IMG/VR virus record: IMGVR_UViG_3300000301_000076
Length of the DNA stretch: 22,417 nucleotides
Origin: a virus
Taxonomy: Duplodnaviria; Heunggongvirae; Uroviricota; Caudoviricetes
Strand: one strand, 5' to 3'
Part shown: positions 3,007 to 22,417 of the stretch, one piece after another
Layout of the letters: every line of letters begins with the position of its first letter
How positions within the stretch are numbered: the first letter of the stretch is position 1
Notes under the pieces: model-generated
Databases searched by the model: none
What the model saw: only the letters and a program-made list of their open reading frames with translations
Told to the model about the DNA's origin: nothing
Made by a program: the position numbers and the translations under genes

Positions 3007-3011
3007 CTATC

Positions 3012-3033: not shown

Positions 3034-3048
3034 TCACAAGGATGTGAG

Positions 3049-3384
3049 ATGGAAAGACAAACGTTTAATTGGTATCCAGATTACGAATCTGAAAAGAGCG
3101 TAAAACCGAATGTAACGGTACTTAATTTTGGTGATGACTACGAGCAGCGACAGGCTCAAGGTCTTAATCGTATTAAAGAAGAATGGTCGTTAACCTTTAC
3201 CAGATCATACAACGAAATTAATGCAATCGATGACTTCCTGACTGAGCGATCAGGCGTTGAATCGTTCTATTGGGTTAATCCAAGAGGCAAGCAGATTGTA
3301 GTTGTATGTGACAGTCATACGGTCAAGCGATATCAGGGGTACTGTGTCTTAACTGCTACATTCAGACAAGTATTTGAGGCTTAA
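3049..3384 (+). CDS. M: Minor tail protein M homologue
   Basis: 111 aa, the size and position of lambda gpM (directly after the tape measure, before L). I recall similarity to lambda M in the N-terminal third (F-W-Y, then V-x-x-L-x-F-G-D-x-Y-x-Q-R). ATG at 3049. Confidence 0.8.
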   Translation: MERQTFNWYPDYESEKSVKPNVTVLNFGDDYEQRQAQGLNRIKEEWSLTFTRSYNEINAIDDFLTERSGVESFYWVNPRGKQIVVVCDSHTVKRYQGYCVLTATFRQVFEA

Positions 3385-3466
3385 GTATCTGGATAAGTAA
3401 GTACTAATTTACTATCATTGTGGCGCTGACAGGATGTTAGCGCCTACTTATTTCAAGGATGAAACA

Positions 3467-4165: not shown

Positions 4166-4955
4166 TAAAGCAATCCCTGAGCTTGGCTCTGACGTTATGC
4201 AGCAAATCTATCTCTGCGCCATAAATCGCTACCCTAATGAAGCGTGTGGCTTTCTGGTTAGAACTAATGGCGACAAATATCGCTTTATGGAAGCGCGGAA
4301 TGTATCGGAGAACCCGCAGAACACTTTTGTAATGCACGTTGACGACATTATAGCGGCAGAGGATGCAGGTGACGTAATTGCAATCTGGCATTCACATACT
4401 GATGAATCAGCAGAAGCATCTGATGCCGATCGTGCTGGCTGTGAAGCGACGGAAGTTCCGTGGATGATTCTGGCTATTCGCAAGAATGTTGAGGGAGATG
4501 CCCCTTTCCATTTTAGCGAGATGAATGTGATCACACCTGATGGTTTCGAAATGCCATACTTGGGCAGACCGTATATATTTGGCGTATTCGATTGCTGGAT
4601 GTTGTGTCGGGACTATCTGAAGCGTGAGTTTAACGTCGAGCTTAACCCGAACGCACACCTGCATATCCCATCATGGTACACCGGCGATAACGACATTCTC
4701 GACAAGAACTACCGAAACGAAGGATTGGTACGGCTTGCGCCCGGAACAGAGCCTCAACGTGGGGACGTCTTCTTTATCCAATACGGAAAAATGCCTGACC
4801 ACTGTGCGGTTTATATCGGCGATGGAATGATTCTTCATCACCAGATCGACCGTCTTAGTTGTCGTGCTTATTACGGCGGGATGTATCAGAAACATACGAC
4901 GCATCACTTGCGTCACAGAGACTTGCTCAAGGGAGATGAGACGTGTCTGAGTTAG
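4158..4955 (+). CDS. K: Tail assembly protein K homologue (N-terminal JAMM/MPN-like plus C-terminal NlpC/P60-like)
   Basis: H-S-H-x7-S-x2-D motif (WHSHTDESAEASDAD) typical of JAMM/MPN; a C-terminal region with Cys (DCWMLCRDY) and His (HCAVYIGDGMILHH) consistent with NlpC/P60. ATG 4158 with GGAG upstream, overlapping the L stop. The ORF-track start at 4131 is probably an upstream extension. Confidence 0.85.
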   Translation: MGNKAIPELGSDVMQQIYLCAINRYPNEACGFLVRTNGDKYRFMEARNVSENPQNTFVMHVDDIIAAEDAGDVIAIWHSHTDESAEASDADRAGCEATEVPWMILAIRKNVEGDAPFHFSEMNVITPDGFEMPYLGRPYIFGVFDCWMLCRDYLKREFNVELNPNAHLHIPSWYTGDNDILDKNYRNEGLVRLAPGTEPQRGDVFFIQYGKMPDHCAVYIGDGMILHHQIDRLSCRAYYGGMYQKHTTHHLRHRDLLKGDETCLS

Positions 4956-5721: not shown

Positions 5722-8700
5722 ATGGAACAGTTCAAGAAGAAAAAGCTACCGCTGTTTATTGCCGGTGCGGGTGGTAAAAAAAGCAGCAAAAGATCCAGCC
5801 GTACACCGGTTGAAGCCGACGATACCGTAAATTCTCGTGCAATGGCCGCTATCCTCGATCTTCTTGGGGAAGGGGTAATTGGCGGTTTAGTAAATGGCGC
5901 AAGATCTATTTTTATCGACGATCTGCCGATTGTAAATGAAGACGGTTCCTCCAACTTCAGCGGAATCACATGGGATTTTCGCGACGGTTCGCAAGACCAG
6001 ACTCCAATGTCTGGCTTTGATTTCGTTGAAACGCCTAAATCCGTCAATATCCAGTTAAAAAAAACACATTATGTAACGGTTTCAATCGATAACGATGAAG
6101 CTGATCGGGTTCGTGTCATCATGAAGTTTCCTTCTTTGCGAAGCATAGATAAAAAAACTGGTGACACGAACGGTACGACTGTTGAGTACAAGTTCCAGAT
6201 AGCAAATGGCGACTCAACATTTGTAGATGTGGTCGCTGAAGGTGAAAAAAGCGTTGGCATTAAGCTAACAGCAAAGAAGACCGGCGTTTATTACCGTAGC
6301 TATGAGCTGAAGCTGCCTAAGCCTGGACGAGCATACAAGGTTCGTGTGGTCCGTATTACCGATGATAACAGTAGCCAGTATCTCTATAACGATACATGGG
6401 TGGATTCAATCGGGGAAATTGTCGATACACCGATGAACTATCCAAACTCTGTTTTGGTTGGATTGAAGGTAAACTCTGAGCAATTCGGCAGCACCATGCC
6501 ATCTCGCTCTTATCTGGTGCGTGGCCTAAAAATTCGAGTACCTTCAAACTATAACGAGTCCAGTAACACTTACGCTGGGGTATGGGATGGCACTTTTAAG
6601 CTGTTGTCTTCTTCGAACCCCGCGTGGATTCTCTTTGATTTGCTGACCAATGCTCGATATGGCCTTGGTCAGTATGTGTCGGAATCTATGATTGACCTTG
6701 GCCAGTTGTACCAGATTGGTCGATATTGTGACGAAGAGGTCGATGATGGCTTTGGTGGCAAAGAGAAACGCTTTGCAATCAATACGCAGATCACCAGTCG
6801 ACAGGACGCATACCGGCTAATTCAGGATATTGCCGGAGCATTCCGCGGCATGGTGTTTTGGGCTGGTGGGATGGTTAACATCATGCANNNNNNNNNNNNN
6901 NNNNNNNNNNNNNNNNNNNNNNNNNNNNNNNNNNNNNNNNNNNNNNNNNNNNNNNNNNNNNNNNNNNNNNNNNNNNNNNNAGATCCGGTAATGATGTTTA
7001 CCAACTCTAACGTCAAAGATGGATTGTTTACCTATAAAGGTTCTGCGCGTAAAGATCGCCCATCCGTTGCGCTCGTAACCTACAACAACAAGGAGGACGG
7101 TTATAAGCAAAACATCGAGTACGTCGAAGATCAGGACGCAATGCGCCGTTATGGTGAGCGTAAGACAGAAGTCGTAGCATTTGGCTGTACAAGCCGAGGC
7201 CAGNNNNNNNNNNNNNNNNNNNNNNNNNNNNNNNNNNNNNNNNNNNNNNNNNNNNNNNNNNNNNNNNNNNNNNNNNNNNNNNNNNNNNNNNNNNTTTATG
7301 GCTTTTGTATACAGCCAGAATGGAGTCGGATGTAATTACATTTACTGCCGGCTTAGATGCGTCATTCCTGATGCCTGGTGAAACCGTTCTGATTCAGAAC
7401 AAATATCGCGCAGGCAAACGTAACTCAGGTCGAATTGTGGCGTTTACCAAAAACAGCGTCACACTCGATGCGCCTGTGTCGTTAGCCAAAGGCGGCTGCT
7501 TTATTCGAATACNNNNNNNNNNNNNNNNNNNNNNNNNNNNNNNNNNNNNNNNNNNNNNNNNNNNNNNNNNNNNNNNNNNNNNNNNNNNNNNNNNNNNNNN
7601 NNNCAAAATCGTTGAACGCGATGTTCTTGAAACTGGCGAAAATATAACAAAAGTTACGTTTTCAAAAGCCCTGTCTTCGGCTGAAACGCCTGTTTTGAAC
7701 GGCGTCTGGACTATTACAGAACCAGACCTCGAACCTATGCGCGTTCGCATTGTTAACATAGCACAGGGGGAAACGCCGGGTAGCTTTGACATCACCGCTG
7801 TTGAGAACAATCCGTCTAAATATGAGGCGATCGACAATGGTGCAACGCTTATCCCGCAGAATACGACGGTATTGGACCCGACTTATTCCAAGCCGTCTAA
7901 TTTGCAAATCACTGNNNNNNNNNNNNNNNNNNNNNNNNNNNNNNNNNNNNNNNNNNNNNNNNNNNNNNNNNNNNNNNNNNNNNNNNNNNNNNNNNNNNNN
8001 NNNNNNNNNNNNNNNNNNNNNNNNTGTCAGTAAAACTGACTGCAACATGGGAAGGGAAATCTCCAGAGTATTGGATCAGTTGGCGACGTTCTGATGAAAA
8101 CAATGTATCGAACTGGCAATCGGCGCGTGTAACCGAAGAGCAATACGAAATCGTTAATGTTGCGGAGAATGGACGCTACGACTTCCAGCTGTATGCGGTT
8201 TCATTCAACGGTAAAAAAACAGAGATTATCAGTACCGTTTATCAGGTGCTGGGCACAATGACACCGCCAGATGCCCCAACGTCATTAACGGCCGTTGGAG
8301 ACTATCGTAATGTGATACTGAATTGGGTTAATCCAGATTCGGTAGACCTTGATCACATTAATGTTTACGCATCCCAGACCAACAATCTGGATACAGCGAA
8401 ACTGATCGCAGAGTCTGCAAGCACCACCTTTACACATGCTGGTCTTGGGGATAGCGAAACGTGGTATTACTGGGTTCGTGCGTCAAACAAGCGCGGTATG
8501 TTGAGTCCTCCGAACTCAAACTTGGGTACAGAGGCGACGACTCGCGATGTGCTGTCGTTCCTGACAGGCAAAATTACGTCTTCTGAACTTGGCCAGACTT
8601 TACTTGAGGAAATCGACTCAAAAGTATCTCAGGAGGCGGTGGATTCCATCTATCAACAGATGGAAGAAAGTCTGAAAATCCTCGATGACAAATTTACAGA

Positions 8701-10463
8701 TGCCGATCAGCGGCTTGAAGAAGCTCAAAACAATCTTAAAACGGAAGTTTCCGGTACTGTCAGCAAGGTGGAAGACGCGCTTAAGGAGGTTGCAAACTCT
8801 AACGCTGCCTTAATTCAGTTGCAGGAAANNNNNNNNNNNNNNNNNNNNNNNNNNNNNNNNNNNNNNNNNNNNNNNNNNNNNNNNNNNNNNNNNNNNNNGC
8901 AGGGTAAAGCTGTAGCTGGAGCTGTTGAGGCGGCAAATGCAGCACTTGACAATTCATCGGCTTTAATTGCGGAGGAGCGTGAAGCACGAGTTGAGGGTGA
9001 CTTGGCAAACGCNNNNNNNNNNNNNNNNNNNNNNNNNNNNNNNNNNNNNNNNNNNNNNNNNNNNNNNNNNTCGAGGCGATGAAGTCAACTGTAGATAGCA
9101 GTTTAGCCACCATTGAAGAAATGAAAAAAACCGTGGCTGAAGTTGAACGTTCTAGTGCCGAAGTTACGACAAACATTGAGGCATTGGCTAAAACAAACAT
9201 CGATCTTGCTTTGCGTCAGGATGAAGATCAGCACAAGCAGATGGTGAGTAATGCGAAGATCACCACAACTCAGAAGGCTTTTGCAGACGATATATCTGCA
9301 ATGGCTACGAAAATGGAGGAAATTCGCGCTGAAATAAATGAGGATATCAGAGCTTCAATCACTGAAGAAACAACGGCTCGTGTAGATGCTGATAATGCTA
9401 TTGCAAGCAGAATCACCAAACTTGAATCAAAGATTAACGATGATATTTCTGCCGCAATTGTGAGTGAACAAGAGGCACGAGCTAGTGCCGATGAAGCACT
9501 TTCAAAAGAAATACTATCGTTACAAGCCAAAATTGAAGGCGATATTAGTGCAGCTATATCTGAAGAAAAAATTGCCCGAGCAACTGCTGATGAATCTTTA
9601 GNNNNNNNNNNNNNNNNNNNNNNNNNNNNNNNNNNNNNNNNNNNNNNNNNNNNNNNNNNNNNNNNNNNNNNNNNNNNNNNNNNNNNNNNNNNNNNNNNNN
9701 NNNNNNNNNNNNNNNAGATATTAAGGCGGCTGTAGCAGAAGAGACGAAAGCCAGAACTGACGCTGATTCGGCTTTGGCTTCTAGTATCACTAATCTACAG
9801 GCGCAAACGAGCAAAGATATTAATGCCGCGATTACGTCTGAGGCAACTGTGCGCACAAACGCCGACAATGCTCTAAGTGGACGAATTGACACCTTAAAAG
9901 CATCAGTTGATGGAAATACAGCGACAATTCAAGAGCANNNNNNNNNNNNNNNNNNNNNNNNNNNNNNNNNNNNNNNNNNNNNNNNNNNNNNNNNNNNNNN
10001 NNNNNNNNNNNNNNNGGCAACTGCTATTGCTGATACTAACAAAAAGGTTTCAACCGCGTGGACGTTGAAGATGGAAACGTCAACAAGTGGTGGGCAAAAA
10101 TATGTCGCAGGTATTGCGCTTGGAATTGACACCACGGGGCTTTCCCAGTTTTTGGTGCAAGCAGATCGATTTGGTCTAGTTAACTCAGTTAACGGAAAGA
10201 TCACCACACCATTTGTTATCGAAAACAGCGTTGCATACATGAATGGTGCGTATATTAAGGATGGTACTATCACAAATGCAAAGGTAGGTGACTTGCAATC
10301 AACAAACTTCGTAAGCGGACGAGTCGGATGGCGATTTGGTAAAAATGGAACGCTTGAGATCAACGGCAATAGTGGCGGCAATGGGAGATTGGTTATAAAT
10401 GGTCAGAGGATTGACGTTTATGATGACAATAATGTCCTTCGAGTGAGGATTGGTCAGCTTTGA
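5722..10463 (+). CDS. J: Host-specificity / central tail tip protein J homologue with an internal coiled-coil repeat insertion (many N-runs; frame changes at each)
   Basis: N-terminal 500 aa are collinear with lambda gpJ by recall (GITWDFRDGSQDQTP, YPNSVLVGLKVNSEQFGS, GLKIRVPSNYN, GVWDGTF, DGFGG, AFGCTSRGQ). Fibronectin-III-like segment at about 8027-8540. Near the C-terminus YVAGIALGIDTTGLSQFLVQADRF matches lambda J [28 protein letters not shown]. Coding is continuous across the gaps only if the N-runs are not length-preserving. ATG 5722 with AAGGA 10 nt upstream; stop at 10461-10463. Confidence 0.85.
9280..9938 (+). repeat. At least six tandem copies of a 33-codon (99-nt) repeat inside J (consensus D-I-x-A-A-I-x-x-E-x-x-A-R-x-x-A-D-x-A-L-x-x-x-I-x-x-L-x-A-x-x-x-x)
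   Basis: The periodic units are visible in the translation and the DNA (gatatatctgca, gatatcagagct, gatatttctgccgca, gatattagtgcagct, gatattaaggcggct, gatattaatgccgcg). Interrupted by N-run 9602-9715, so the copy number is a minimum. Confidence 0.8.
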
Positions 10464-10556: not shown

Positions 10557-13171
10557 ATGTGGTACAGGGAAGGTACAATAAATCTCACTAAAGGAAATAA
10601 AACTGTAGTGGGAACAGGCACAGCCTGGGGAGTGACGGCGAACGGCGTCCTTCCAGGTATGATATTGATTGGCCCCGATAATAAGTTATATGAAATAAAA
10701 TCAATCGAGAGTGACACTTCGTTAACTCTTGTTGAAGCCTACGGTGGTAGCACCCAAACAAATGTCCCGTGCAGAATAATTACGACCTATGAAGGTGATT
10801 TAACCCAATTTAGTGCTCGTTTTACTGCGCTTATGTCTCGCATGTCAGCCNNNNNNNNNNNNNNNNNNNNNNNNNNNNNNNNNNNNNNNNNNNNNNNNNN
10901 NNNNNNNNNNNNNNNNNNNNNNNNNNNNNNNNNNNNNNNNNNTCAAAAATGATGCGTAGTTGGTTGACTGCCGTGGATGAAATAACAATTGAGCGTGAAG
11001 ATGGCACGGAATTAACCGTAAAATCCCTTACGCAGATCGTTAATGAGCACAATGAGAACCTAGAATGGTATAAAGAAAATACTCCCATAATTAACACCGC
11101 TGCACAAAAAGCTAAAGAGGCGGCAGCGAGCGCAACAGCGGCCAAAAAATCAGAAACTAACTCAAAAGCGAGTGAGACAGCTTCAAAGACTAGCGAAACT
11201 AATGCGAAAAATAGCGAGGTAGCTGCAAAATCGAGTCAGAGTGCTGCCGCAAACTCCGCTACCGCAGCAAAAAACAGCCAGGATGCAGCAGCCGAAAGCG
11301 AGAGTGCTGCAGCTGGTTCTGCGACTTCAGCAGCTGGATCAGCAACTGCTGCGGCTAACAGCCAGAAAGCCGCGAAGACGAGCGAAACTAACGCAAAGTC
11401 CAGCCAGACGGCAGCGAAGACCAGCGAAACAAATGCCAAAGCCAGCGAAACTGCGGCGAAAAACAGTCAGGATGCAGCAGCCCAAAGCGAGAGTGCCGCA
11501 GCTGGTTCTGCAAGTGCGGCGGCTTCTTCTGCCTCTGCATCAGCCAACAGTCAAAAAGCTGCAAAAACCAGTGAAACCAACGCAAAGGCGAGCGAGACTG
11601 AGGCGGCTAACTCAGCGAAAGCATCGGCAGCAAGCCAGACGGCTGCAAAAGCAAGTGAAGACGCAGCCAGAGAGTATGCAAGCCAGGCTGCGGAGCCGTA
11701 TAAACAAGTTTTGCAGCCGCTTCCCGATGTGTGGATACCGTTTAACGATTCACTGGATATGATTACGGGCTTTTCGCCGTCATATAAAAAGATTGTTATT
11801 GGTGATGATGAAATAACGATGCCTGGCGATAAGGTTGTAAAGTTTAAACGCGCATCAACTGCCACATATATCAATAAATCAGGCGTATTTAGTGTTGCTA
11901 AAATTGATGAGCCACGATTTGAAAAAGAAGGTTTATTGATTGAAGGACAGCGCACTAACTATTTTGTTAAATCCAATATCCCCGCTGAATGGACGAGTAC
12001 CAGCAATATCGATAAAACTAATAATGGTGTTGATGAATTTGGTTTTTCATATGCCAAAATGCGAACAAAAGATAATATGACAGGACAATCATCTGCACTT
12101 AGTCTGCATACATGCAGTGCATCCCGGGGGATTGATGTTAGTGGCGATAATAAGTATTGCACTGTTTCATGCAGGGTTAAAGCTCCTGATGGTCTTCGTT
12201 GTCGTTTGCGTTTTGAAAAATACGATGGGTCGGTTTATACATTTTTAGGAGATGCTTATTTAACTTTCGGAACTCTGATAATAGAAAAAACTGGCGGAGC
12301 AGCCAATAGAATAGCAGCTACTGCAACTAAAGATCCGGTTACAGGGTGGATTTTCTATGAGGCAACTATAGAAGCTGTTGAAGGTGAAACCTTAATTGGC
12401 GCAATGATTCAGTATGCGCCGAAAAAAGGTGGTGTAACTGAAGCGGGAGATTATATTTACCTTGCAACACCACAATTTGAAAACGGCGGATGTGCTTCAT
12501 CTTTTGTTATTACGACAACTGTACCCGCAACCCGCTCCAGTGATATGGTGACGATCCCAACTGAAAATAATATCTATAATAGACCGCTTACGTGCCTGGT
12601 CGAGGTTAATAGAAATTGGGGCGATATTCCTCCTAATGTAGCACCGCGTATTTTTGATTTTTCTGGTGTGCCACCTATTGAGTCAATTACATACGCTTTT
12701 AACACAACTGAGAAATATTACGGNNNNNNNNNNNNNNNNNNNNNNNNNNNNNNNNNNNNNNNNNNNNNNNNNNNNNNNNNNNNNNNNNNNNNNNNNNNNN
12801 NNNNNNNNNNNNNNNNNNNNNNNNNNNNCGTCGACAAGTACTTACGTTTCTAGTGTGTTTGCTGGTCGAACTGATGTTCGAAAATTCATTGGTGGTTTTA
12901 ATATTTATTCTGATGGTACTAAACGAGTAGTTTCTAACGGTGAGGCTACTAAAACCATGAAAACGGAGTGGACGGGCGTAAAAACACGGACCTTTATTCG
13001 AATTGGAGGTCAAGCCACATCGGGAACTCGTCATCTATTCGGCCATTNNNNNNNNNNNNNNNNNNNNNNNNNNNNNNNNNNNNNNNNNNNNNNNNNNNNN
13101 NNNNNNNNNNNNNNNNNNNNNNNNNNNNNNNNNNNNNNNNNNNNNNNNNNNNNNNNGGCATAAAGAATTAA
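10557..13171 (+). CDS. Side tail fibre protein (receptor-binding fibre); 3' end uncertain (13171 or 13203 depending on the frame after N-run 13048-13156)
   Basis: ATG 10557 with GGAG upstream. Long Ala/Ser/Thr/Lys/Glu/Asn low-complexity segment with repeated KTSETNAK and NSQDAAA-SESAAAGSA motifs, as in the lambda Stf collar region, followed by a roughly 400-aa globular distal domain. The segments between N-runs are open in only one frame each. Confidence 0.7.
11270..11650 (+). repeat. Two near-identical direct repeats of about 190 nt inside the fibre collar region
   Basis: aaaaacagccaggatgcagcagccgaaagcgagagtgctgcagctggttctgc at about 11271 recurs as aaaaacagtcaggatgcagcagcccaaagcgagagtgccgcagctggttctgc at about 11460; the protein repeats AAKNSQDAAA(E/Q)SESAAAGSA...ANSQKAAKTSETNAK. 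Confidence 0.75.
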
Positions 13172-13199
13172 CTGATGCGCAAATGGGGGAGAGTATTAA

Positions 13200-13481
13200 A
13201 TGAAAGATTTAACGCTCAAATTTGCAGACAGGGCCGACTTTTCGGCCTTTATGGAGAGTATTGGCTATTATGATGACGAGTCGATGCAGGGTGATATTCT
13301 TATTGACGTGATAGGTAACGTGTACAAAGAAACCGGAGAACTGACTGAAGATGGCGAACCGGTATGTGTTAAGGAGGACGGATATTTTGTAAACGTGCGC
13401 ATCATTAATGATGCAAAAAAATCGTCAATATTCGATAAATACGCGATTGTTGTTGAGCATCAACTTCGTGGCTGGATGTGA
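13200..13481 (+). CDS. Hypothetical protein, 93 aa (possible fibre assembly factor by position only)
   Basis: ATG 13200 preceded by GGGGGAG; acidic soluble protein; lies between the fibre gene and the chaperone-domain gene. No family recognised. Confidence 0.45.
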   Translation: MKDLTLKFADRADFSAFMESIGYYDDESMQGDILIDVIGNVYKETGELTEDGEPVCVKEDGYFVNVRIINDAKKSSIFDKYAIVVEHQLRGWM

Positions 13482-13490
13482 GGGAGACAA

Positions 13491-14364
13491 ATGGCTACAT
13501 CGACAGTAATTCCAGGAGACATCACCACGTTAAAGGGAGATGTCAGTAAAGCCAAGGAAGATATTTCCTCAATTAACGGAAAAGTATCAACGCTTCAGAC
13601 TGATATGACCAGTGCAAAGCAGGATATCAGCACCAGATACACAAAAACTGAAGTTGATAATANNNNNNNNNNNNNNNNNNNNNNNNNNNNNNNNNNNNNN
13701 NNNNNNNNNNNNNNNNNNNNNNNNNNNNNNNNNNNNNNNNNNNNNNNNNNNNNNNNNNNAAAGTGGAAGTGAACGATCTGGAAAGTGGTCGTTATGGTGG
13801 AGATTTTTACCCGCTGACTGGTCGTGAAGCGTTTTATTTGTGGGGATTGGGCACGACTACAGCGGCGGCAAACCTTTATCTTAATCCTGACCCCGCAATT
13901 TCGTCTGTACTGCGGTCCACATCGTCTATCCGCTATAAACATTCAGTAGAGACGATAGATTCGGAGCACGCCGATCTCATTTTCAAGATGCGCCCTGTGT
14001 GGTACAGGTCGCAATGCGAAAATGACAGGCGCGATTGGGGATTCTATGGATTGATTGCCGAGGAAGTAGGAGAAATTGCCCCTCAGTTTGTTCACTGGCG
14101 AGCAGCTAACGAGAATNNNNNNNNNNNNNNNNNNNNNNNNNNNNNNNNNNNNNNNNNNNNNNNNNNNNNNNNNNNNNNNNNNNNNNNNNNNNNNNNNNNN
14201 NNNNNNNNNNNNNNNTTTCCAGCAATGGCCTTGTTGCCGAAGGTGTAATGTACGAACGTCTGGTTGTTCCACTGATTCACCATATCCAGAAACTGACTGA
14301 AAGAGTTGATGAACTTGAGTCAGAATTAAAGTTGTTATCAACTTCCCGAAGCGATATCGGATAA
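13491..14364 (+). CDS. Short fibre-like protein with N-terminal coiled coil and C-terminal intramolecular-chaperone (peptidase S74-like) domain; N-runs 13663-13759 and 14117-14215
   Basis: ATG 13491 with GAGGGAG upstream. The N-terminus has heptad-like repeats (TLKGDVSKAKEDISSINGKVSTLQTDMTSAKQDIS). The C-terminal part has the hallmarks I recall from endosialidase and T5 pb1 chaperone domains: a Ser-rich site (RSTSSIRYK), WGFYGLIAEEVGEIAPQFV, and a terminal Y-x-x-L-V-x-x-L-I-x-x-I-Q-K-L-x-x-R-V-x-E-L-E helix. Stop at 14362-14364. Confidence 0.6.
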
Positions 14365-14375
14365 AGGAGGAGTAA

Positions 14376-14739
14376 TGGATATAACACCTTTCCTTCATGC
14401 ACTTTGTGCTGTGGCTGCGCAGGTACTGGTTGGGNNNNNNNNNNNNNNNNNNNNNNNNNNNNNNNNNNNNNNNNNNNNNNNNNNNNNNNNNNNNNNNNNN
14501 NNNNNNNNNNNNNNNNNNNNNNNGGAAACTGGGCTTACGGGGCGATAGCCGGTTGTACGTTCTTCATTGCTCGTGAACATACCCAGGCAGAATATCGCTG
14601 GATTGAAATGTTCGGGCATGGCAAGCGAATGAATATGCCGTGGTGGGGCGGTTTTGATCCGCGCGCGTGGGATGTAGCAAGTCTGATGGATTTTGCGATT
14701 CCACTTTTAGCGTGCACATTATTATATATTTTTATTTAA
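14376..14739 (+). CDS. Small hydrophobic membrane protein, about 120 aa (N-run 14435-14523)
   Basis: ATG 14376 preceded by AGGAGG. Hydrophobic N-terminus (MDITPFLHALCAVAAQVLVG) and hydrophobic C-terminus (FAIPLLACTLLYIFI). Function unknown. Confidence 0.4.
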
Positions 14740-14920: not shown

Positions 14921-15324
14921 ATGTCGAACGAGATGGCGGGCGTAACAACAGAGCAAGTTGAGCGCATTGCCGCGATCGTTGCTCGGGAGGTTGTCGGCAA
15001 ATTAGGTAAAGAGCTACGTGAAGAAATTGGCCAGGAGGTCAACGATCAGCTGAAAACCTACTTTGGTGATATGACCCCGGCGCAACATAGTATTCAACAC
15101 TCCAACCTGGACAAANNNNNNNNNNNNNNNNNNNNNNNNNNNNNNNNNNNNNNNNNNNNNNNNNNNNNNNNNNNNNNNNNNNNNNNNNNNNNNNNNNNNN
15201 NNNNNNNNNNGATTCCATCTCCAGTGGGTTCTTTGGCGGCATTGTTTCTAAAATAACGTCGTTCATTATTACCGCACTGCTTTTGGGGTTAGCCGCGTAT
15301 GGCGTGAAAAATGGACTGCAATAA
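14921..15324 (+). CDS. Holin-like membrane protein with a single C-terminal transmembrane segment (N-run 15116-15210)
   Basis: ATG 14921 with GGAGG 5 nt upstream. Hydrophilic charged N-terminus; the C-terminus after the gap reads FFGGIVSKITSFIITALLLGLAAYGVKNGLQ. Lies immediately upstream of the endolysin-like gene. The holin assignment is by position and topology only. Confidence 0.4.
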
Positions 15325-15337
15325 CAGGAGATCAAGG

Positions 15338-16111
15338 ATGAAGACTCCGAGAGGCATTCGTAACAATAACCCCGGTAATCTTGATAAAGGATCGCCGTGG
15401 CAAGGTCTGGTTGCTNNNNNNNNNNNNNNNNNNNNNNNNNNNNNNNNNNNNNNNNNNNNNNNNNNNNNNNNNNNNNNNNNNNNNNNNNNNNNNNNNNNNN
15501 NNNNNNNNNNNNNNNNNNNNNNGTTTAAAGACCCTGTTTGGGGGATTCGTGCGCTGGCGGTGACTCTAATTACCTACCACGACAAACGTCGCGCAAAAGA
15601 CGGCTCAAGTATCGATACCATTCGTGAAGTTATTGAACGCTGGGCACCGCCGAACGAAAATAACACTGACGCCTATATTAATGAGGTGTCCAAAGCAGTT
15701 GGTGTAACCGCAGACATGATTATCGATCTGCATGATTACGACATCCTTCGACCTTTAGTTGAGGCAATCATTCGCCACGAGAATGGCCGAGGCCCGCTAA
15801 AAACGCTGAACACCTGGTATGCGGCAGAAGTTATTGAGGAAGGTCTGCGTCGAGCTGGCGTCGTTAAGCCGGTGAAAACGGTGAAGGCTGTTCCTGTAAC
15901 GAAAGAAACCGCAGGCGCAACTGTTACAGCAGGTATTGGTCTGGCGCAGCTTGCCGATGTTATGCCGCAGATTTCCGCTGCTATGGATAAAGCACAAGGT
16001 CATATCTCTAGCGGGGATACAGTACGCATCATCTTCGGTATTGCCACTATTGTTGTGGCAGGATTCATTGCCTGGTCGCAGGTAAGAAAACACCAGAAAG
16101 GGATGGTCTAA
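15338..16111 (+). CDS. Endolysin-like cell-wall hydrolase with a C-terminal hydrophobic anchor (N-run 15416-15522)
   Basis: ATG 15338 with AGGAG upstream. N-terminal motif GIRNNNPGNL, which I associate with phage peptidoglycan-hydrolase-type proteins but cannot assign to a family without a search. C-terminus VRIIFGIATIVVAGFIAWSQV is a predicted transmembrane helix. Sits between the holin-like and spanin genes. Confidence 0.5.
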   Translation: MKTPRGIRNNNPGNLDKGSPWQGLVAXXXXXXXXXXXXXXXXXXXXXXXXXXXXXXXXXXXXFKDPVWGIRALAVTLITYHDKRRAKDGSSIDTIREVIERWAPPNENNTDAYINEVSKAVGVTADMIIDLHDYDILRPLVEAIIRHENGRGPLKTLNTWYAAEVIEEGLRRAGVVKPVKTVKAVPVTKETAGATVTAGIGLAQLADVMPQISAAMDKAQGHISSGDTVRIIFGIATIVVAGFIAWSQVRKHQKGMV

Positions 16112-16112
16112 T

Positions 16113-16577
16113 ATGCTAGGCATCCTGATGACAAAGCTAAAAGTTGCTTTGATTATGCTGGCTGCCGTTCTTTTCGTTCTTGTCGGCGCTTACACGATGG
16201 GCGGAAATGCGGCGCGACGAGCAATGGAAGAGAAGGCAAAACAGGAAGACAGAAAACGACTTCAAAACACAGTGAAAGNNNNNNNNNNNNNNNNNNNNNN
16301 NNNNNNNNNNNNNNNNNNNNNNNNNNNNNNNNNNNNNNNNNNNNNNNNNNNNNNNNNNNNNNNNNNNNNNNNNNNNNNNNNNNNNNNNNAGATGCTTCTG
16401 CCGTTCATCGTGAGTTGTATGATAAGTGGGTGCGTCATTAAACCACAAACAGCCAGCGTGTTGTTCTGCGATGGGGCTGAGCCTATCTATATCAGCAATA
16501 ATGATGTAATGACTGAAGAAACCGAACGCCAAATCCTTTTTCACAATACGATGGGAGAGAGGGTTTGTGGTTGGTGA
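16113..16577 (+). CDS. Spanin locus: i-spanin (N-terminal TMD plus charged coiled coil) and o-spanin-like lipoprotein segment (N-run 16279-16389 hides the junction)
   Basis: MLGILMTKLKVALIMLAAVLFVLVGAYT is a signal-anchor followed by a charged helical region (Rz-like). After the gap, MLLPFIVSCMISGC has a lipobox-like signal and a short Cys-containing periplasmic tail (Rz1-like). Whether the arrangement is embedded, overlapped or separated cannot be seen. Confidence 0.55.
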   Translation: MLGILMTKLKVALIMLAAVLFVLVGAYTMGGNAARRAMEEKAKQEDRKRLQNTVKXXXXXXXXXXXXXXXXXXXXXXXXXXXXXXXXXXXXXXMLLPFIVSCMISGCVIKPQTASVLFCDGAEPIYISNNDVMTEETERQILFHNTMGERVCGW

Positions 16578-16584
16578 TGTCGAA

Positions 16585-16606
16585 GTTCCCCTCAAATGAG
16601 GGGAAC
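16585..16606. terminator. Perfect palindrome gttcccctca-aa-tgaggggaac between convergent operons; possible bidirectional terminator
   Basis: 10-bp arms read directly; lies 8 nt after the spanin stop and near the toxin 3' end on the - strand. No clear U-tract on either side, so terminator function is uncertain. Confidence 0.35.
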
Positions 16607-16714
16607 ACATTATTCTNNNNNNNNNNNNNNNNNNNNNNNNNNNNNNNNNNNNNNNNNNNNNNNNNNNNNNNNNNNNNNNNNNNNNNNNNNNNNNNNNNNN
16701 NNNNNNNNNNNNNN

Positions 16715-17290
16715 AGATTTTGTAGGATAGAACAAAGAACGCTCGTTGTTACCAACCAGCTGGATAAAGCCTAAACTTTTATAAAACGCCTTGGCTTTGT
16801 CATTTAACGCCTCAACGAAAAGTCCATGAATGCCTACAGCAAGAGATGCATTGTACACAACGCGCATTGCATGTGTTACAAGNNNNNNNNNNNNNNNNNN
16901 NNNNNNNNNNNNNNNNNNNNNNNNNNNNNNNNNNNNNNNNNNNNNNNNNNNNNNNNNNNNNATTGAGCCAAATCCTTGACCTTGAAGGGACTTGTCCAAA
17001 GCCAGCCTACCCAAAGTAACACTTGGAACATTCCGATAAGGAACCTTCTTTTGTTTGCTTCTTGAAGGTAAGGACTCCTTTTCAAAACAACTACCTGACA
17101 AAGTGTAATATCCTAACACTTTTGGCCTTTCTTCTTGAGTGCAAAGCACATAAGCACGAAGAATTTTTCCCTCATGCTGCCTTTTTAAGTGGTTGGCTAA
17201 AAAGGCGTTTAGTGACTCTTCGCCGCAATCAAAACCGTTTAGATCATAATCTTTCTCTCCAGAGAAAATCTCTATCGTTGTATTGCTCAC
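16715..17290 (-). CDS. GNAT-family acetyltransferase toxin, AtaT/TacT-like (3' end lies inside N-run 16617-16714; internal N-run 16883-16961)
   Basis: The translation is close to my recollection of E. coli AtaT (YDLxxFDCGEExLNxFL, KILRAYVLC, VLGYYTLSGSCFE, QKKVPYxNVPSVTLGRLAxDxSLQGQGFG, HAMxVVxxASLAVGIHGLFVEALNxKA, FYKSLGFIxLVG, FYPTKS). GTG start at 17290, 5 nt after the antitoxin stop. Confidence 0.85.
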
Positions 17291-17297
17291 GAGTAAA

Positions 17298-17567
17298 CTA
17301 CTCCATGCTTTTCAGACGATCAGCAGCTCGTTTCAGCTTGTCGTTCGGTGCCGGAGGATTGCTTATAGCGTCCATAACCAGATTCCAGGATTCTTCATTC
17401 AGAACTAGTCTACGGTGTTGCTCTATAACTTTCACGGCACGTTCAGATGCACTGCTAACCATAAACTGAGTAATGCTCTGGTTAGACATTGCGGCAGCTT
17501 CCTCGATGATGCTTTTATCGTCATCGGTTAATCTCAAATCGATGCGCTGCTTTTTTAGTGCTGACAT
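17298..17567 (-). CDS. DUF1778 ribbon-helix-helix antitoxin, AtaR/TacA-like
   Basis: MSALKKQRIDLRLTDDDKSIIEEAAAMSNQSITQFMVSSASERAVKVIEQHRRLVLNEESWNLVMDAISNPPAPNDKLKRAADRLKSME matches recalled AtaR almost along its whole length. Start taken at the internal ATG (17567) because AGGAGG precedes it; the ORF-track start at 17606 is rejected. Confidence 0.85.
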   Translation of the reverse strand: MSALKKQRIDLRLTDDDKSIIEEAAAMSNQSITQFMVSSASERAVKVIEQHRRLVLNEESWNLVMDAISNPPAPNDKLKRAADRLKSME

Positions 17568-17577
17568 GTATTCCTCC

Positions 17578-17605
17578 TGATGGCCGTGATGTAGGAAGGC
17601 CATCA
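17578..17605 (-). promoter_or_regulatory. Inverted repeat TGATGGCC-N12-GGCCATCA immediately upstream of the antitoxin RBS; candidate operator of the TA operon
   Basis: 8-bp perfect arms read directly from the sequence. TA operons of this family are autoregulated by the antitoxin-toxin complex binding palindromes at the promoter (established knowledge); the assignment here is inference. Confidence 0.35.
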
Positions 17606-17885
17606 ATCTCCTCTGTTCAAACTGAGTTTTCGACTCAAAAATTACTTTAAAAGGCTATAGCCCATTACGTGTGCATTATCAAATTGTGTACGGCATATCA
17701 CCGTACTTGTAATATAGAGGTCATTGTTACTTTTTTCAACAGACAAATACAAGCTATGATTGCCAATTGTTAACCACAACCTACCATTTAACCTTTACAC
17801 CGCAGCCGTAGGCATTTAGGCTATATCACATATAAGAAAACAAGTTGTTTCAGACGATAATTATATACGCAAAGGGAACTCTCCA

Positions 17886-18628
17886 ATGACCAAGATCTTT
17901 GTGGTTGGCGGCACAAAGGGCGGGCCTGGCAAATCCACCGTTGCCCAGCAAATTGCCGTTTGCCTGAAAGTCAAAAAGAAGAAGAAGGTTTATATTACCG
18001 ATATAGATATNNNNNNNNNNNNNNNNNNNNNNNNNNNNNNNNNNNNNNNNNNNNNNNNNNNNNNNNNNNNNNNNNNNNNNNNNNNNNNNNNNNNNNNNNN
18101 NNNNNNTGTGAAGACCGTCGACAGAACGAAGACCTTGAGCTGATTCCTTTTGCATACGTTCAGGATGACATCATTAAGCACCTAAAATCGCTTCAGGGTA
18201 GAGCTGAGTTTGTAGTGGTAGATGCTGGTGGCTTCGACTCCGAAATTCAGCGACAAGCGATGCTGATGGCTGACGTTATCATTATCCCGCTGCGTCCTAA
18301 GCGTCGTGATTTGAAATCTTTACGTGACATCGATCCTATTATCGACAATGTTCGCAATGTAAACGATAAAGTGAAGGTCCGCGCGGTCATGAACCAGTGC
18401 CCGGCTTTGCCATCACAAGTGTCTCGCATTCTGGCGGCTAAAGAGATTGTTGAGACGTTTGGAATCGAGTCTGCGCCAGTCAATCTATATAACCGCAACG
18501 TCTATGATGATGCGGAAGAGTCTGGTCGTTCTATCTTTGAAATGACCGGTAGCGAGCGCGACAAAAAGGCGGAAGCCGAGTTTGAAGAATTTGTAGATTA
18601 TCTGTTGAGTCTGGAGGAAGAAGAATAA
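17886..18628 (+). CDS. parA: ParA-family partition ATPase, small type Ib-like (N-run 18011-18106)
   Basis: Deviant Walker A at the N-terminus (VGGTKGGPGKST), VVVDAGG motif, about 245 aa. ATG 17886; stop overlaps the next start (TAATG at 18626-18630). Confidence 0.85.
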
Positions 18629-18987
18629 TGTCCATGAAAATGGGTGACCTAGCAAAGCGCAAAGAGCCTGATGCACCGGCTAAGAACACAACTCCTTTGC
18701 GCCAACCAGTCAGACCACAAGGACGCCCGACTCGTGGCAAAGAGAAAATTAAAAGCCGCACTATGTCACTGGAAGACGAATACTTCGAGCTTCTGGAAAT
18801 GATGAAGTTTATCCCTCGTTTCGAGAAGTTCACCCGCTCTGATGTGATTCGTGCTGCTATTTTCCATCTGGCAGAGAAGTCACCGCAGGAAATCGAGGAC
18901 ATCGTAAAGCTGAACGAGGCGATCACAGCTGCCGATGTCACGATGCGTACCGATGAAATTAAACGCGAGTTGATGAAGAAAGGTTAA
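18628..18987 (+). CDS. ParG-like centromere-binding protein (basic disordered N-terminus, C-terminal ribbon-helix-helix-like)
   Basis: 119 aa, Lys/Arg/Pro-rich N-terminal 45 aa, then a predicted strand-helix-helix segment (MSLEDEYFELLEMMKFIPRFEKFTRSDVIRAAIFHLAEKS). Translationally coupled to parA. Classic small ParA plus small partner architecture. Confidence 0.55.
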   Translation: MSMKMGDLAKRKEPDAPAKNTTPLRQPVRPQGRPTRGKEKIKSRTMSLEDEYFELLEMMKFIPRFEKFTRSDVIRAAIFHLAEKSPQEIEDIVKLNEAITAADVTMRTDEIKRELMKKG

Positions 18988-19018
18988 TAATGTGGGCTGT
19001 CTAGCCCACATTATTTTA
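18988..19018 (+). terminator. Rho-independent terminator after the partition operon (aatgtgggct / gtct / agcccacatt, then ATTTTAATT)
   Basis: 10-bp perfect stem, 4-nt loop, T-rich tail, starting 1 nt after the parG-like stop. Confidence 0.65.
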
Positions 19019-19038
19019 ATTAAAGTGGAGTGATAATT

Positions 19039-19869
19039 ATGCATTCGTTAGTATTTGCATTTAAAAACATACTCAAGAATGTTATAAACATACTAGGGAT
19101 GTTAAATATTTTTTTGTCTGTGAGGGTGAGGAGAAAAGATATAAAAGATAAATTAAAGGAACTTAACAAAGAAAAAGAACAATTAAAAAGCGAAGAAATT
19201 ATTATTGATTTATACAAGAAAAAACTCGCATCTAGCAAGGGGAAAGCTAATGATAAAATCAAAGGAAAAATAATTCACTATATTATTGCTAGAGAGTTGG
19301 GGAATGATCCTGATAATGAAGATTTGCGACATAATCTTTTTACAAAGATAAAAGAATCAGAAGAACAGGTTGAAGTTCTGGTTCATCAAAGAGAAGTAAG
19401 TGAGCAGGCGAACAAAAAAGAAACGGTTGTCAATTTGTTTTTATTGTATGAAAAAAATAAATTGTTTAAAGCTAAGGGGTTGGCTGTGTTTCTTATAGTT
19501 ATAAACTTAATTATAGTTGCGACTCTCGATCTTCCAGCTTGGTCATTGATTATAAGTTTTTTTATTCTCTCTTTNNNNNNNNNNNNNNNNNNNNNNNNNN
19601 NNNNNNNNNNNNNNNNNNNNNNNNNNNNNNNNNNNNNNNNNNNNNNNNNNNNNNNNNNNNNNNNNNNNNNNNNNNNNNNNATTCGTGTCTCTAAAGGATA
19701 TTTTGGCACAAGTGCGTATGAAGCGGTTCAATTGCTTAAATTCATCAGAGAAAATTCAGACAAATTTGACTCAGATGATAATGACGGTAGCCCACGACGG
19801 ATATTGAATCCGAAGGGAACAACAAAAAAATCAGACAACCTATTCGATAAAGGGTGGCAAAATGTTTGA
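19039..19869 (+). CDS. Hypothetical membrane-associated protein, AT-rich gene (N-run 19575-19680)
   Basis: ATG 19039 with TGGAG 9 nt upstream. Amphipathic N-terminus, Lys/Glu-rich coiled-coil-like stretch, hydrophobic block (GLAVFLIVINLIIVATLDLPAWSLIISFFILS), soluble C-terminal tail. GC is much lower than the flanks (about 30 percent by eye). No family recognised. Confidence 0.5.
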   Translation: MHSLVFAFKNILKNVINILGMLNIFLSVRVRRKDIKDKLKELNKEKEQLKSEEIIIDLYKKKLASSKGKANDKIKGKIIHYIIARELGNDPDNEDLRHNLFTKIKESEEQVEVLVHQREVSEQANKKETVVNLFLLYEKNKLFKAKGLAVFLIVINLIIVATLDLPAWSLIISFFILSXXXXXXXXXXXXXXXXXXXXXXXXXXXXXXXXXXXXIRVSKGYFGTSAYEAVQLLKFIRENSDKFDSDDNDGSPRRILNPKGTTKKSDNLFDKGWQNV

Positions 19870-20284
19870 CCTTGACGCCATCACTAAGTTCTTAAATCAG
19901 TGTTTTGATCTACTTTTGCTCAAGCAGCCTTTAAGAACTGTTTTCGGAATACTGATTGGTTTCATTATTTTTGTTTTTGTTTACACGTTTAGGTTTGCGA
20001 TAGCTCAAGATTTTTATGAAATAGATGGTGTGCATTACGCTGCATGTTTCGTCATCGGTGTTTTAGTTGTTCACACAAGAACATTTTTTGACGTTATCAA
20101 GGGCACCGCAGTTGATGAAGAAATAGATAGTATGATCAGAGTTATTACGAAGCAGCCACACCTATCTAACCATCAAAAAAACATAATGATTGCTGAAATA
20201 CTTCAAAAAGAAATTGCAGCCATAAGTCAAAAGAGATTGGATAAAGTTGCACAAGAAATAACGGAGAAAAAGACAACTGATTAA
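19862..20284 (+). CDS. Hypothetical small membrane protein (two predicted TM helices), translationally coupled to the upstream gene
   Basis: ATG 19862 overlaps the upstream stop (ATGTTTGA). Hydrophobic segments TVFGILIGFIIFVFVYTF and AACFVIGVLVV, then a charged C-terminal helix. AT-rich. No family recognised. Confidence 0.5.
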   Translation: MFDLDAITKFLNQCFDLLLLKQPLRTVFGILIGFIIFVFVYTFRFAIAQDFYEIDGVHYAACFVIGVLVVHTRTFFDVIKGTAVDEEIDSMIRVITKQPHLSNHQKNIMIAEILQKEIAAISQKRLDKVAQEITEKKTTD

Positions 20285-20464
20285 TTTAATTACCTGTTTC
20301 TGTATATAAATAATAAGTAACTTATTAAATATATATACGGAAGCAGGTCTTTTAAAAGACACCCACCAGAACAACTCCCTTCCGTTTCCACTTCCAAAAA
20401 CTGCCACCAGTCGCTATCATCCGCTCATTGTGATAAGTAAGTAACTACCTACCAGGTGAGCCAC

Positions 20465-21284
20465 ATGAGCCAAATCTTTTTCGATACCATCGACAACAAC
20501 CAGTACGACTTCATGACAGAGTGGAATACCGCTGTTATGGACAAGTGGGTTGCTGAAAACATTGGTTTGTCGCGCTGTAAAGACGAGGCTGAACTCTTCG
20601 AGACGAAGTGGTTTGATTATCGCGACATGCATCCTCTCATGGCCACCTGTCTTTTTACGGAGGCATACAAACGTCAGTACTCAAATATCATGCTGACGCA
20701 CGGTCGCGAACACTTTGAAACAGCTCCGTTCACCACCGGGTTAAAACGTCTGCCTTATCAGGAGTTGTCGACTGCCAACAAAACGTCGCTATGGAAAGCA
20801 CGCCAGTTTGCGGATCGCTATTGCTGCTCATACGACTACTTTATCTCCACCGTTCTTTCCGCAGCTGCACGACGGCTGTGGGACAAGCTGCCGCGCCCAC
20901 AGCATTTGTGGCAGCCAGAACTGATTNNNNNNNNNNNNNNNNNNNNNNNNNNNNNNNNNNNNNNNNNNNNNNNNNNNNNNNNNNNNNNNNNNNNNNNNNN
21001 NNNNNNNNNNNNNTGAAGAGAAATTAGCCAGACGCGCAACAACCCGTCTGGATGACTCTCTTGTTAGCTTTAAGCATATGGGAGACATGCAGTTCAACCC
21101 GATTCAGGAAAGCTATTTTGAGTGGATTCTGGAGCGTTTGCGCACCATCCCTCGCAGCAAGCGCATACGCGCAATTTTCTCCGCTATCTGGCTAATGGAA
21201 ATCGTTCCAGAGCGCCTTATTTCCGCCCACTTTCCAGAAGAACTGGAAGAAGCACGGCGGTTTATTGATCCCCTATCTAATTAA
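20465..21284 (+). CDS. Hypothetical protein upstream of the helicase; possible replication-associated factor (N-run 20927-21013)
   Basis: Open frame either side of the N-run, both halves soluble with protein-like composition; lies directly upstream of a DnaB-like helicase gene. No family recognised. Start could be GTG 20456 or ATG 20465. Confidence 0.4.
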
Positions 21285-21327
21285 CTAATACTAGAAAACA
21301 ATTTGTTTAAAAAACAAAGGAAAGCAC

Positions 21328-22417
21328 ATGACCGAACTTTGCCATACAGGACGCGGGCTGTCCGAAGAGTTTGATGAAGATTTCCAGAACAGACTGACGG
21401 CATATTTTTGTCGTGATCACGAGTTTCTTACTCGTGCGGGAGATCTGGTTGTGCCTAGCCAATTTGCCAATGCGGCCAATGCCATATTGGTTAATATGGT
21501 TTCGGGCTATTACCGTATGTACAAGAGCGCGCCCTCTTCATCTGCAATTCTGGATATGCTTAAGCGTGCGAAACGCGATAAGACTATCCGTGAGGAACTA
21601 TTCGCAGATGTTGTTGCTGCGTTTAAGCGCATTCTTGCAGAAAAATTGTCCGATACCTCGTACATGGTTGACCAGGTATCAACCTTCGCAAAAAGTGTAG
21701 CGTTTGATGATGCTCTGATTAAGGCTGCTGAACTGAAAGAGAAAGGCGACTTTCAGGGGGCGATGGCAATCATGGCCAAGGTTCAGCAGATTGGATCGAA
21801 CGAAGCGACCGGAATCTATGACTACTACACCTCCGCAAGTGAGCGATTGAAAGCGCGTGAATATGAGGCTTCAGAGGAGTATGTACCAAACAGTATTACA
21901 ACTGGACTCCCTCTTCTCGATAGGTTGCTGTACCAAAAAGGCTGGGCAAAGCGCGAAATGGTGCTCTTCATGGGGTTCGCTAAATCCGGTAAATCGACCG
22001 CAATGGGTGAGTTTTCCATAAACGCAACACTTGCTGGCTACAATGTTCTGTATCTCTCGCTGGAGGTTCACACCACCATTTTATCCGACCGTTTTGATGC
22101 AAGATTGTCGGAGACGGAAATGTCCAAGTTGGTGGAACGGCGCGATGAAGTTCATCGCAAGTTGGCAGAGTTGGGAGCTACGAAGGGTATTGGTAGTTTG
22201 TGGGTTGTTGAGCGTCCGTCAGGAAGTATGTCACCGGCAGATCTGGACCGTATGCTTAACAGCATGAAAGCCAACGGCATGGTGCCTGACATGGTTGTTG
22301 TCGACTACGCAGATTTGATGCGTGCCAGTTATGACCTTCGTGATGATCGCGCCAACATTCGTAGTATCTACACCGATTTACGTGCTCTTTATGACAAGCA
22401 TAACGTTGCTGGGATCA
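21328..22417 (+). CDS. DnaB-like replicative helicase, 3' partial (runs off the window end)
   Basis: I translated this frame by hand from ATG 21328: no stop to nt 22417 (363 codons). Walker A GFAKSGKST and Walker B-like MVVVDYADLM in the RecA-like C-terminal half, with a helical N-terminal domain. It is absent from the ORF track only because it has no stop in the window. Confidence 0.75.
   Translation, partial: MTELCHTGRGLSEEFDEDFQNRLTAYFCRDHEFLTRAGDLVVPSQFANAANAILVNMVSGYYRMYKSAPSSSAILDMLKRAKRDKTIREELFADVVAAFKRILAEKLSDTSYMVDQVSTFAKSVAFDDALIKAAELKEKGDFQGAMAIMAKVQQIGSNEATGIYDYYTSASERLKAREYEASEEYVPNSITTGLPLLDRLLYQKGWAKREMVLFMGFAKSGKSTAMGEFSINATLAGYNVLYLSLEVHTTILSDRFDARLSETEMSKLVERRDEVHRKLAELGATKGIGSLWVVERPSGSMSPADLDRMLNSMKANGMVPDMVVVDYADLMRASYDLRDDRANIRSIYTDLRALYDKHNVAGI

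Follow-up and report, generated by a model that had tools for sequence, protein, structure and literature searches.

P1 is a myovirus with a type Ia ParAB-parS partition system, the Phd/Doc addiction module, and RepA/RepL, and N15 is linear, with a protelomerase and SopAB. Both are temperate phages that live as low-copy plasmids by means of partition, addiction, and replication modules (PMC7969092). Relatives of Salmonella phage SSU5 make up the largest supergroup of phage-plasmids (PMC7969092), and these phage-plasmid types are exclusively extrachromosomal across thousands of complete genomes (PMC9600943). They are common in Escherichia coli, Salmonella (as pHCM2 of S. Typhi), Shigella, and Klebsiella, may carry resistance genes, and are often mislabeled as plain plasmids. 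Among them, Escherichia phage Cyrano, which is pLF82 of E. coli LF82, has a measured copy number of 5.5 plasmids per cell, forms virions, and responds to ciprofloxacin with a 39-fold induction (PMC9928086). Here we describe a 22,417-nt stretch of viral DNA (IMG/VR record IMGVR_UViG_3300000301_000076; the window hereafter), a gapped scaffold that very probably belongs to a phage-plasmid of the SSU5 supergroup, from Escherichia or a close relative, of the sort represented by pLF82/Cyrano and the pO104-type ~110-kb "plasmids." The element would follow the same lifestyle logic as P1 and N15, with components unrelated to theirs, and no protelomerase was found in the complete relatives examined (NZ_AP023200.1 and kin). 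Virion production has been demonstrated for Cyrano and SSU5 only (PMC9928086, PMC7969092); of the virion and lysis genes, the window holds those for the distal tail and for lysis.

A mosaic member of the SSU5 supergroup

Over its unmasked length the window is 97 to 100% identical at the nucleotide level to circular E. coli plasmids of 106 to 113 kb and 97.7% identical to Cyrano, and it matches SSU5 at ~81% identity restricted to parts of the window. Searches with the whole window and with positions 16715-22417 both return hundreds of enterobacterial "plasmids" together with a handful of phage records, and all near-identical records are circular plasmids or phage genomes of 100 to 115 kb. All scanned window proteins match SSU5-family PHROGs. 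An exact 63-mer of the spacer between the TA pair and parA is shared with 17 IMG/VR contigs, which are 92.5 to 99.4% identical to the window, have no N runs, and do not include the window itself; the same 63-mer has no match in a collection of genome contigs. Plasmid pMTY18780-3 (NZ_AP023200.1) is 100% identical from position 17779 to the window end, and p108_MLI108-3 (NZ_CP117002.1) has the highest overall coverage of the window, at 78%. Because no single record covers more than this, the window is best described as a mosaic of known variants, in which the J and side fiber region is like that of p108_MLI108-3, not Cyrano, and the cassette that follows the par genes is like that of pMTY18780-3.

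The genes of the distal tail, from tape measure to side tail fiber, and those for lysis stop at ~16577 and are directly followed by a toxin-antitoxin (TA) pair, beyond which lie the genes for a small ParA ATPase and its partner, two predicted membrane proteins, a conserved 246-amino-acid (aa) protein, and a DnaB-like helicase (Table 1). The order of lysis genes, cassette, parA-partner operon, cassette, ~240-aa gene, dnaB, and primase is kept in SSU5, Klebsiella phage pJN2-26, Cyrano, pMTY18780-3, and p108_MLI108-3. Cyrano, these two plasmids, and the 109-kb plasmid of E. coli O104:H4 2009EL-2050 (NC_018651.1) have the same ParA, partner, 246-aa protein, helicase, and gene order as the window. 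SSU5 and pHCM2 have the same architecture, with a lambda-like tail, lysis genes, the parA-partner pair, a 240-aa gene, dnaB, and primase (PMC7969092), although SSU5 lacks the GNAT/DUF1778 cassette and has other accessory genes between the partner and the 240-aa gene. Relatedness and synteny both place the element in the SSU5 supergroup, whose members are described as extrachromosomal replicons of ~85 to 134 kb with a repA of the IncFIB-pHCM2 type, and whose members closest to the window are circular and of 106 to 113 kb.

A reading of the sequence made without database searches (the sequence-only reading) had seen in the contiguity of tail, lysis, TA, partition, and replication genes the signature of a phage-plasmid, and had proposed a search for related families; the relatives found are those of the SSU5 supergroup. 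The contiguity is real and proves to be the family-wide gene order. As a signature, the gene set is of uneven value: the ParA/partner pair is of plasmid type and is the only plasmid-type signal in the window, but the TA pair and the helicase are not plasmid specific. TA modules are common on integrated prophages and on virulent phages, as DnaB-like helicases are on integrating and virulent ones. The phage-plasmid identity is correct, but the kind has already been described, and the window is a new mosaic member of a well-described family. Spotting such an element from a gapped 22-kb scaffold helps annotation and adds nothing new.

The proposal that the element is maintained outside the chromosome is well supported. 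Among 5426 complete E. coli genomes, 264 carry the block from par to helicase (17607-22417), at 486 places, all of them in plasmid records and none chromosomal. The closest complete relatives are circular plasmids with head, terminase, and portal genes and a repA of the IncFIB(pHCM2) type, as illustrated by pMTY18780-3, a circle of 112,965 bp with a full head, portal, and terminase block, a repA typed as IncFIB (pHCM2 replicon), a tyrosine recombinase beside a helix-turn-helix (HTH) repressor, and dnaE, ligase, primase, nrdAB, thyA, and folA genes. These observations, together with supergroup membership and the measured copy number of Cyrano, make integration of the element very unlikely as judged from its genes and relatives.

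Several points weigh against this reading or qualify it. The element is known here from 22 kb of gapped scaffold, and circularity, repA, the head genes, and read depth lie beyond its view; judging from the relatives, the plasmid initiator gene repA is situated ~33 kb beyond the right end. What the 25 gaps conceal is short in each case, and parA loses 22 nt to them and the toxin gene 18 nt. The relatives carry a tyrosine recombinase annotated as an "integrase" next to the repressor, and some family members are non-inducible or make no virions, as in E. coli 166F4 and K. pneumoniae p2. The ParA partner has no significant match to ribbon-helix-helix (RHH) proteins or ParG in phmmer and profile searches against PDB at E values up to 10, and repeat and k-mer searches of the regions beside the par operon (17568-17885 and 18988-19040) find no centromere-like repeat array. 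Finally, we found no experimental test of the par system or the TA pair of an SSU5-type element in the literature.

Table 1. Features of the 22,417-nt window, with position, strand, and supporting evidence
Feature	Position	Strand	Evidence
Tail tape-measure gene, 3' part (3' two-thirds)	1-3006	+	phrog_1292, E = 0, profile positions 573-1446 of 1523; mapped on coding sequence 350-4915 of NZ_CP117002.1
Lambda M-, L-, K-, and I-like tail tip genes	3049-3384, 3434-4165, 4158-4955, 4943-~5704	+	phrog_14, phrog_18, phrog_30, phrog_32, E = 1e-36 to 5e-119; annotation of Cyrano and NZ_CP117002.1
Central tail fiber gene, J-like	5722-10463	+	phrog_31/phrog_2589, E = 0
Side tail fiber and three small accessory/fiber-domain genes	10608-14739	+	phrog_1419, E = 0
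Lysis cassette (holin-like, endolysin, Rz, Rz1)	14921-16577	+	PHROG; annotations of SSU5, Cyrano, and pJN2-26
Holin-like gene	~14921-15324	+	Single C-terminal transmembrane segment (translation)
Endolysin gene	~15338-16111	+	phrog_873, 3e-88
Rz	~16113-16441	+	phrog_1026, 9e-25
Rz1	~16458-16577	+	Annotation of relatives
GNAT acetyltransferase toxin gene, AtaT/KacT type	16610-17290	-	AtaT 6GTS, 1.4e-79 (also 6AJM); KacT 5XUN, 1.4e-74; phrog_1758, 3e-45
DUF1778/TacA-family antitoxin gene, 89 aa	17298-17567	-	PF08681, 8.6e-26; KacA 5ZGN, 1.7e-41; AtaR 6AJM_C, 3.3e-40
Divergent intergenic region, 318 nt	17568-17885	.	Between TA operon and parA
parA, small type Ib ParF-like ATPase, 222 aa	17886-18628	+	phrog_164, 4e-51; MipZ, AAA_31, and CbiA families
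ParA partner gene, 119 aa, probable centromere-binding protein	18628-18987	+	phrog_5111, 4.5e-80
Perfect 13-bp hairpin and T run, likely par operon terminator	18986-19015	+	RNA fold -18.5 kcal/mol, z = -4.2
Two low-GC genes, predicted membrane proteins of 250 and 140 aa	19039-20284	+	phrog_22270, phrog_17322 (both of unknown function)
Conserved AT-rich palindrome, arms CCTGYTTCYGTATAT	20293-20347	.	Hairpin -26.1 kcal/mol, z = -6.8
Conserved gene for all-alpha protein, 246 aa	20465-21284	+	Directly upstream of helicase
DnaB-like replicative helicase gene, first 363 of 446 aa	21328-22417	+	PF03796, 3.6e-13; phrog_19, 5.5e-88 (100% identical relative)

Scaffold gaps and the integrity of the genes

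The window holds 25 runs of N, 2463 nt in total, between 2699 and 21013, and five of them fall within 16715-22417 (e.g., 16883-16961, 18011-18106, and 20927-21013). Alignment of their flanks with three close relatives shows that each run stands for 0 to 124 nt and that most are ~80 nt too long (range, 50 to 89); the N runs are therefore overestimated scaffold gaps and not masks that preserve length. Because of the excess length, J, parA, Rz, and the genes for the toxin, the endolysin, and the 246-aa protein appear frameshifted, fused, or split in a list of open reading frames (ORFs). The J-like gene, for example, appears as five ORFs solely on account of nine N runs, and frameshifts in J as a sign of decay were rejected, as each change of frame falls on an N run that is ~80 nt too long. 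Between the gaps the sequence aligns with the relatives at 92 to 100% identity with zero indels, and the genes for ParA, the toxin, and the 246-aa protein match their counterparts at 99.6 to 100% identity and are ungapped between N runs. The GC profiles also show artificial dips at the N runs.

These alignments bear on the alternative that survives best, namely, that the window derives from a defective element, maintained as a plasmid but forming no infectious particles, and so a plasmid with phage genes. Such elements exist in the family: the SSU5-type element of E. coli 166F4 gave no packaged DNA after mitomycin C treatment, and K. pneumoniae p2 is packaged in membrane vesicles rather than virions. 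Moreover, the 25 short stretches under the gaps make the intactness of the J and fiber genes unprovable from the window. We regard a defective derivative as unlikely, however, since all visible tail, lysis, par, and replication segments align free of indels, the apparent frameshifts all coincide with overlong N runs, and the near-identical Cyrano makes virions.

The partition operon

Within the window, the plasmid-type signal is the parA-partner operon. ParA has a deviant Walker A motif (GGTKGGPGKST) and no N-terminal HTH or other DNA-binding domain, and among solved structures ParF of TP228 matches it best (4DZZ and 5U1G, E = 1.2e-10). Its gene contains the N run at 18011-18106, which accounts for the 22 concealed nt. 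The partner ORF overlaps the parA stop codon by 1 nt, and the pair is conserved together in relatives, in a canonical type Ib layout with translational coupling. As in the ParF-ParG-parH system of TP228, a small deviant-Walker ParA is followed by a small downstream partner whose N terminus is basic and flexible and whose core is probably RHH. The relationship to ParF is remote, however (E = 1e-10), the partner has no detectable similarity to ParG, and no parH-like array was found upstream.

The sequence-only reading had named a small ParA and an RHH partner; both proteins are present, with the partner coupled to parA, but the RHH fold had been assumed, and it draws support at a subthreshold level only. 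Two divergent homologues of the partner have subthreshold RHH_1 matches (E = 0.005 and 0.11) at a conserved segment, KSRTMSLEDE-helix-TRSDVIRAAI, which has the strand-helix-helix pattern of CopG/Arc proteins. The AlphaFold2 monomer (pLDDT 63) has helices at residues 48-60 and 70-84 and two further helices, and its residues 1-46 are without secondary structure (1-25 with very low confidence), such that the N terminus is predicted to be disordered and is basic. The partner itself has no Pfam match at E values up to 10, a Pfam search of 12 homologues at the same limit did not show the fold, and Foldseek against PDB found nothing. An RHH fold for the core is thus probable but unproven. Position, coupling to parA, and the sequence pattern point to a centromere-binding protein rather than a toxin; the Cyrano annotation of the partner (CYRAN_29, OV696614.1) as a "RelE/ParE putative toxin" is unsupported by any of the family or structure searches.

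Comparison of E. coli, Salmonella, and Klebsiella versions gives ratios of nonsynonymous to synonymous substitution rates (dN/dS) of 0.03 to 0.06 for parA, 0.01 to 0.04 for the partner, and 0.03 to 0.05 for the 246-aa gene, with a dS of ~0.5 to 2 in most between-genus comparisons, and the SSU5 proteins are ~92% (ParA) and ~98% (partner) identical to those in the window. This strong purifying selection argues that the par genes are no relics, and values of 0.01 to 0.06 contradict the suggestion, raised as a possible refutation in the sequence-only reading, that they might be inactive remnants.

The repeated-site centromere that is a classical feature of type Ib systems is not seen, as repeat and k-mer searches revealed neither a repeat array nor iterons beside the operon; the repeats present there are scattered 7- to 8-mers and the terminator hairpin, although short or degenerate sites could escape such searches. 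Promoter and terminator scans gave site counts no higher than in shuffled sequence, including the promoter-like sites in 17568-17885. This bears on a second alternative, in which ParA and its partner have some other role, such as a lytic-cycle one in positioning or regulation, and segregation is left to other genes of the element, the candidates being a second MinD-like ATPase and two genes with ParB/Srx domains. Besides the failure to find a centromere, it is favored by the tiny and unannotated partner family (18 representatives at E ≤ 0.001 among 1.84 billion proteins), by the presence in relatives of genes with ParB N-terminal domains near the terminase and in Cyrano of a "septum site-determining protein," and by the argument that ParA homologues of virulent Bacillus phages are no sign of a plasmid state (PMC7969092). 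We consider it quite improbable nonetheless, as the best solved match of ParA is a bona fide plasmid partition ATPase, the layout is that of a type Ib operon with translational coupling, and the pair has been kept across the whole of a family whose members are always extrachromosomal.

Homologues of ParA occur more widely. Close relatives in Kluyvera and Buttiauxella lie on contigs of 58 to 109 kb. Homologues of ~40% identity are present in Colwellia, Thalassotalea, and related Alteromonadales, where the contigs that carry them are large and apparently chromosomal; one of these is a complete chromosome (CP186339.1).

Tail fibers shared with integrating phages

The side tail fiber and accessory genes at ~11261-14696 are ~89 to 93% identical to those of the integrative lambdoid E. 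coli phages PhiR49_1, IdasGreatGrand, and 2G7b, and are unlike those of Cyrano. From this resemblance, the side tail fiber region is, by its sequence, a mosaic host-range module, apparently swapped between phage-plasmids and ordinary prophages. A search with the whole window gives 5280 chromosomal places, because tail and fiber genes are common to lambdoid prophages. The sequence-only reading had counted an integrase with chromosomal attachment junctions among the findings that would tell against its proposal, but the presence of such an enzyme does not discriminate, since the relatives carry a tyrosine recombinase and yet are never chromosomal; the complete lack of chromosomal copies suggests that the enzyme is most likely a multimer resolvase like Cre of P1. 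An integrated lambdoid prophage with relic partition and TA genes, for which one could cite the fiber region (~93% identity to integrative phages), the chromosomal places found via tail genes, the annotated integrase, and a chromosomally integrated plasmid of S. Agona that has the SSU5 repB/parA region but no phage structural genes (bioRxiv 10.1101/2025.09.12.675607), is close to refuted by the absence of chromosomal copies among the 486 par-helicase places, the purifying selection on the par genes, and the near-identical records, all of which are circular plasmids or phage genomes.

Toxin-antitoxin pair and variable cassettes

The TA pair next to the lysis genes is, by sequence similarity, a type II system of the GNAT/DUF1778 class and of the AtaRT/KacAT type, as had been proposed, with E values of 1.4e-79 for AtaT and ~1e-41 for KacA/AtaR. 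The true length of the toxin is 173 aa; two N runs (16617-16714 and 16883-16961), which conceal 1 nt and 17 nt, add spurious length to its gene. The acetyl-CoA loop QGQGFG and the tyrosine-containing motif FYKSLGF are conserved in alignment with AtaT and KacT, and the match to TacT is far weaker (E = 2e-11). The antitoxin gene is preceded by an AGGAGG ribosome-binding site and lies directly upstream of the toxin gene on the minus strand, 7 nt apart. The same gene families and antitoxin-first order are found in AtaRT of E. coli O157:H7, KacAT of K. pneumoniae, and TacAT of Salmonella; these are chromosomal, whereas the pair described here is a swappable phage-plasmid cassette, for which the tRNA target and addiction role are predicted only.

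Two swappable cassettes flank the parA-partner operon, one to the left at ~16580-17778 and one to the right at 18991-20289. The left cassette is the AtaRT/KacAT-type pair in the window, Cyrano, and p108_MLI108-3, but two unrelated genes in pMTY18780-3; identity with relatives that lack the TA pair resumes at ~17779, which marks its right edge. The left edge of the right cassette is at the terminator hairpin, with the alignments of Cyrano and p108_MLI108-3 ending at 18990/18991. Here the window has the two genes for predicted membrane proteins, and other relatives have GIY-YIG, P-loop NTPase, DUF2971, or insertion sequence genes. The membrane-protein genes have no Pfam match of note, and a defense function was rejected for them, as their PADLOC matches are at chance level. 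The contents of both sites across the relatives suggest a hotspot for defense or accessory genes.

Replication module and conserved palindrome

The DnaB-like helicase that had been recognized from the sequence is confirmed by its PF03796 match and a visible Walker A motif (GFAKSGKST); its gene runs off the window end, and in relatives it is followed by primase, ligase, and dnaE. With primase, ligase, and the DNA polymerase III alpha subunit (PolIII-alpha), it is a phage-type replisome gene and no plasmid marker by itself. The 246-aa protein encoded upstream, of which the N run at 20927-21013 conceals 8 nt, is possibly a helicase loader or initiator.

The palindrome marks the right-hand limit of the variable cassette and immediately precedes the replication module. 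It stands at the same position in Cyrano, p108_MLI108-3, pMTY18780-3, and SSU5, and the pattern of its arms gives 2 matches against 0.02 expected by chance. pMTY18780-3 has copies at two further intergenic sites. In locus coordinates, palindromes outside the window lie at 9555-9609 and 39118-39172 of pMTY18780-3, 20946-20998 of L001, and 9459-9473 of L007. It may act as a terminator, an insulator, or an operator, as judged from its sequence and location. We put forward tentatively, as a possibility that leans toward the doubtful, that the SSU5-type maintenance module holds three uncharacterized parts: a narrow-family partner acting on a centromere other than a classical array of repeats next to the operon, a new helicase loader in the 246-aa protein, and an operator or insulator in the palindrome, of which there are at least three copies per genome.

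A model for maintenance and lytic growth

As an SSU5-type phage-plasmid, the element would be carried during lysogeny as a low-copy circular plasmid replicating from a RepA (IncFIB-pHCM2 type) origin outside the window. Its copies would be segregated by the type Ib system, with the 119-aa partner dimerizing through its RHH core and binding a putative centromere, and with the basic disordered N-terminal tail stimulating the ParF-like ATPase so that plasmids are moved apart over the nucleoid. Cells that lose the element would be killed or arrested by the AtaT/KacT-like toxin, which is predicted to acetylate charged tRNA once no longer restrained by the labile DUF1778 antitoxin. The helicase and the downstream primase, ligase, and PolIII-alpha would form the phage's own replisome, probably used mainly in lytic replication. 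DNA damage would lead to siphovirus particles with a lambda-like tail and to lysis by the holin-like protein, endolysin, and spanins.

Remaining tail and lysis genes

The lambda-like tail and lysis set, which had been called complete, is present in the window with its lysis cassette, but the tail is not complete: the window opens inside the tape-measure gene, which begins upstream, and the major tail, chaperone, and terminator genes also lie upstream. The tape-measure gene seems to change frame because of the N run at 2699-2784. No Rfam families and no tRNAs were found in the window. The endolysin encoded at 15338-16111 has a hydrophobic C-terminal segment, IIFGIATIVVAGFIAWSQV, and its RefSeq relatives are annotated as "membrane protein"; membrane anchoring through the C terminus is unusual among endolysins.

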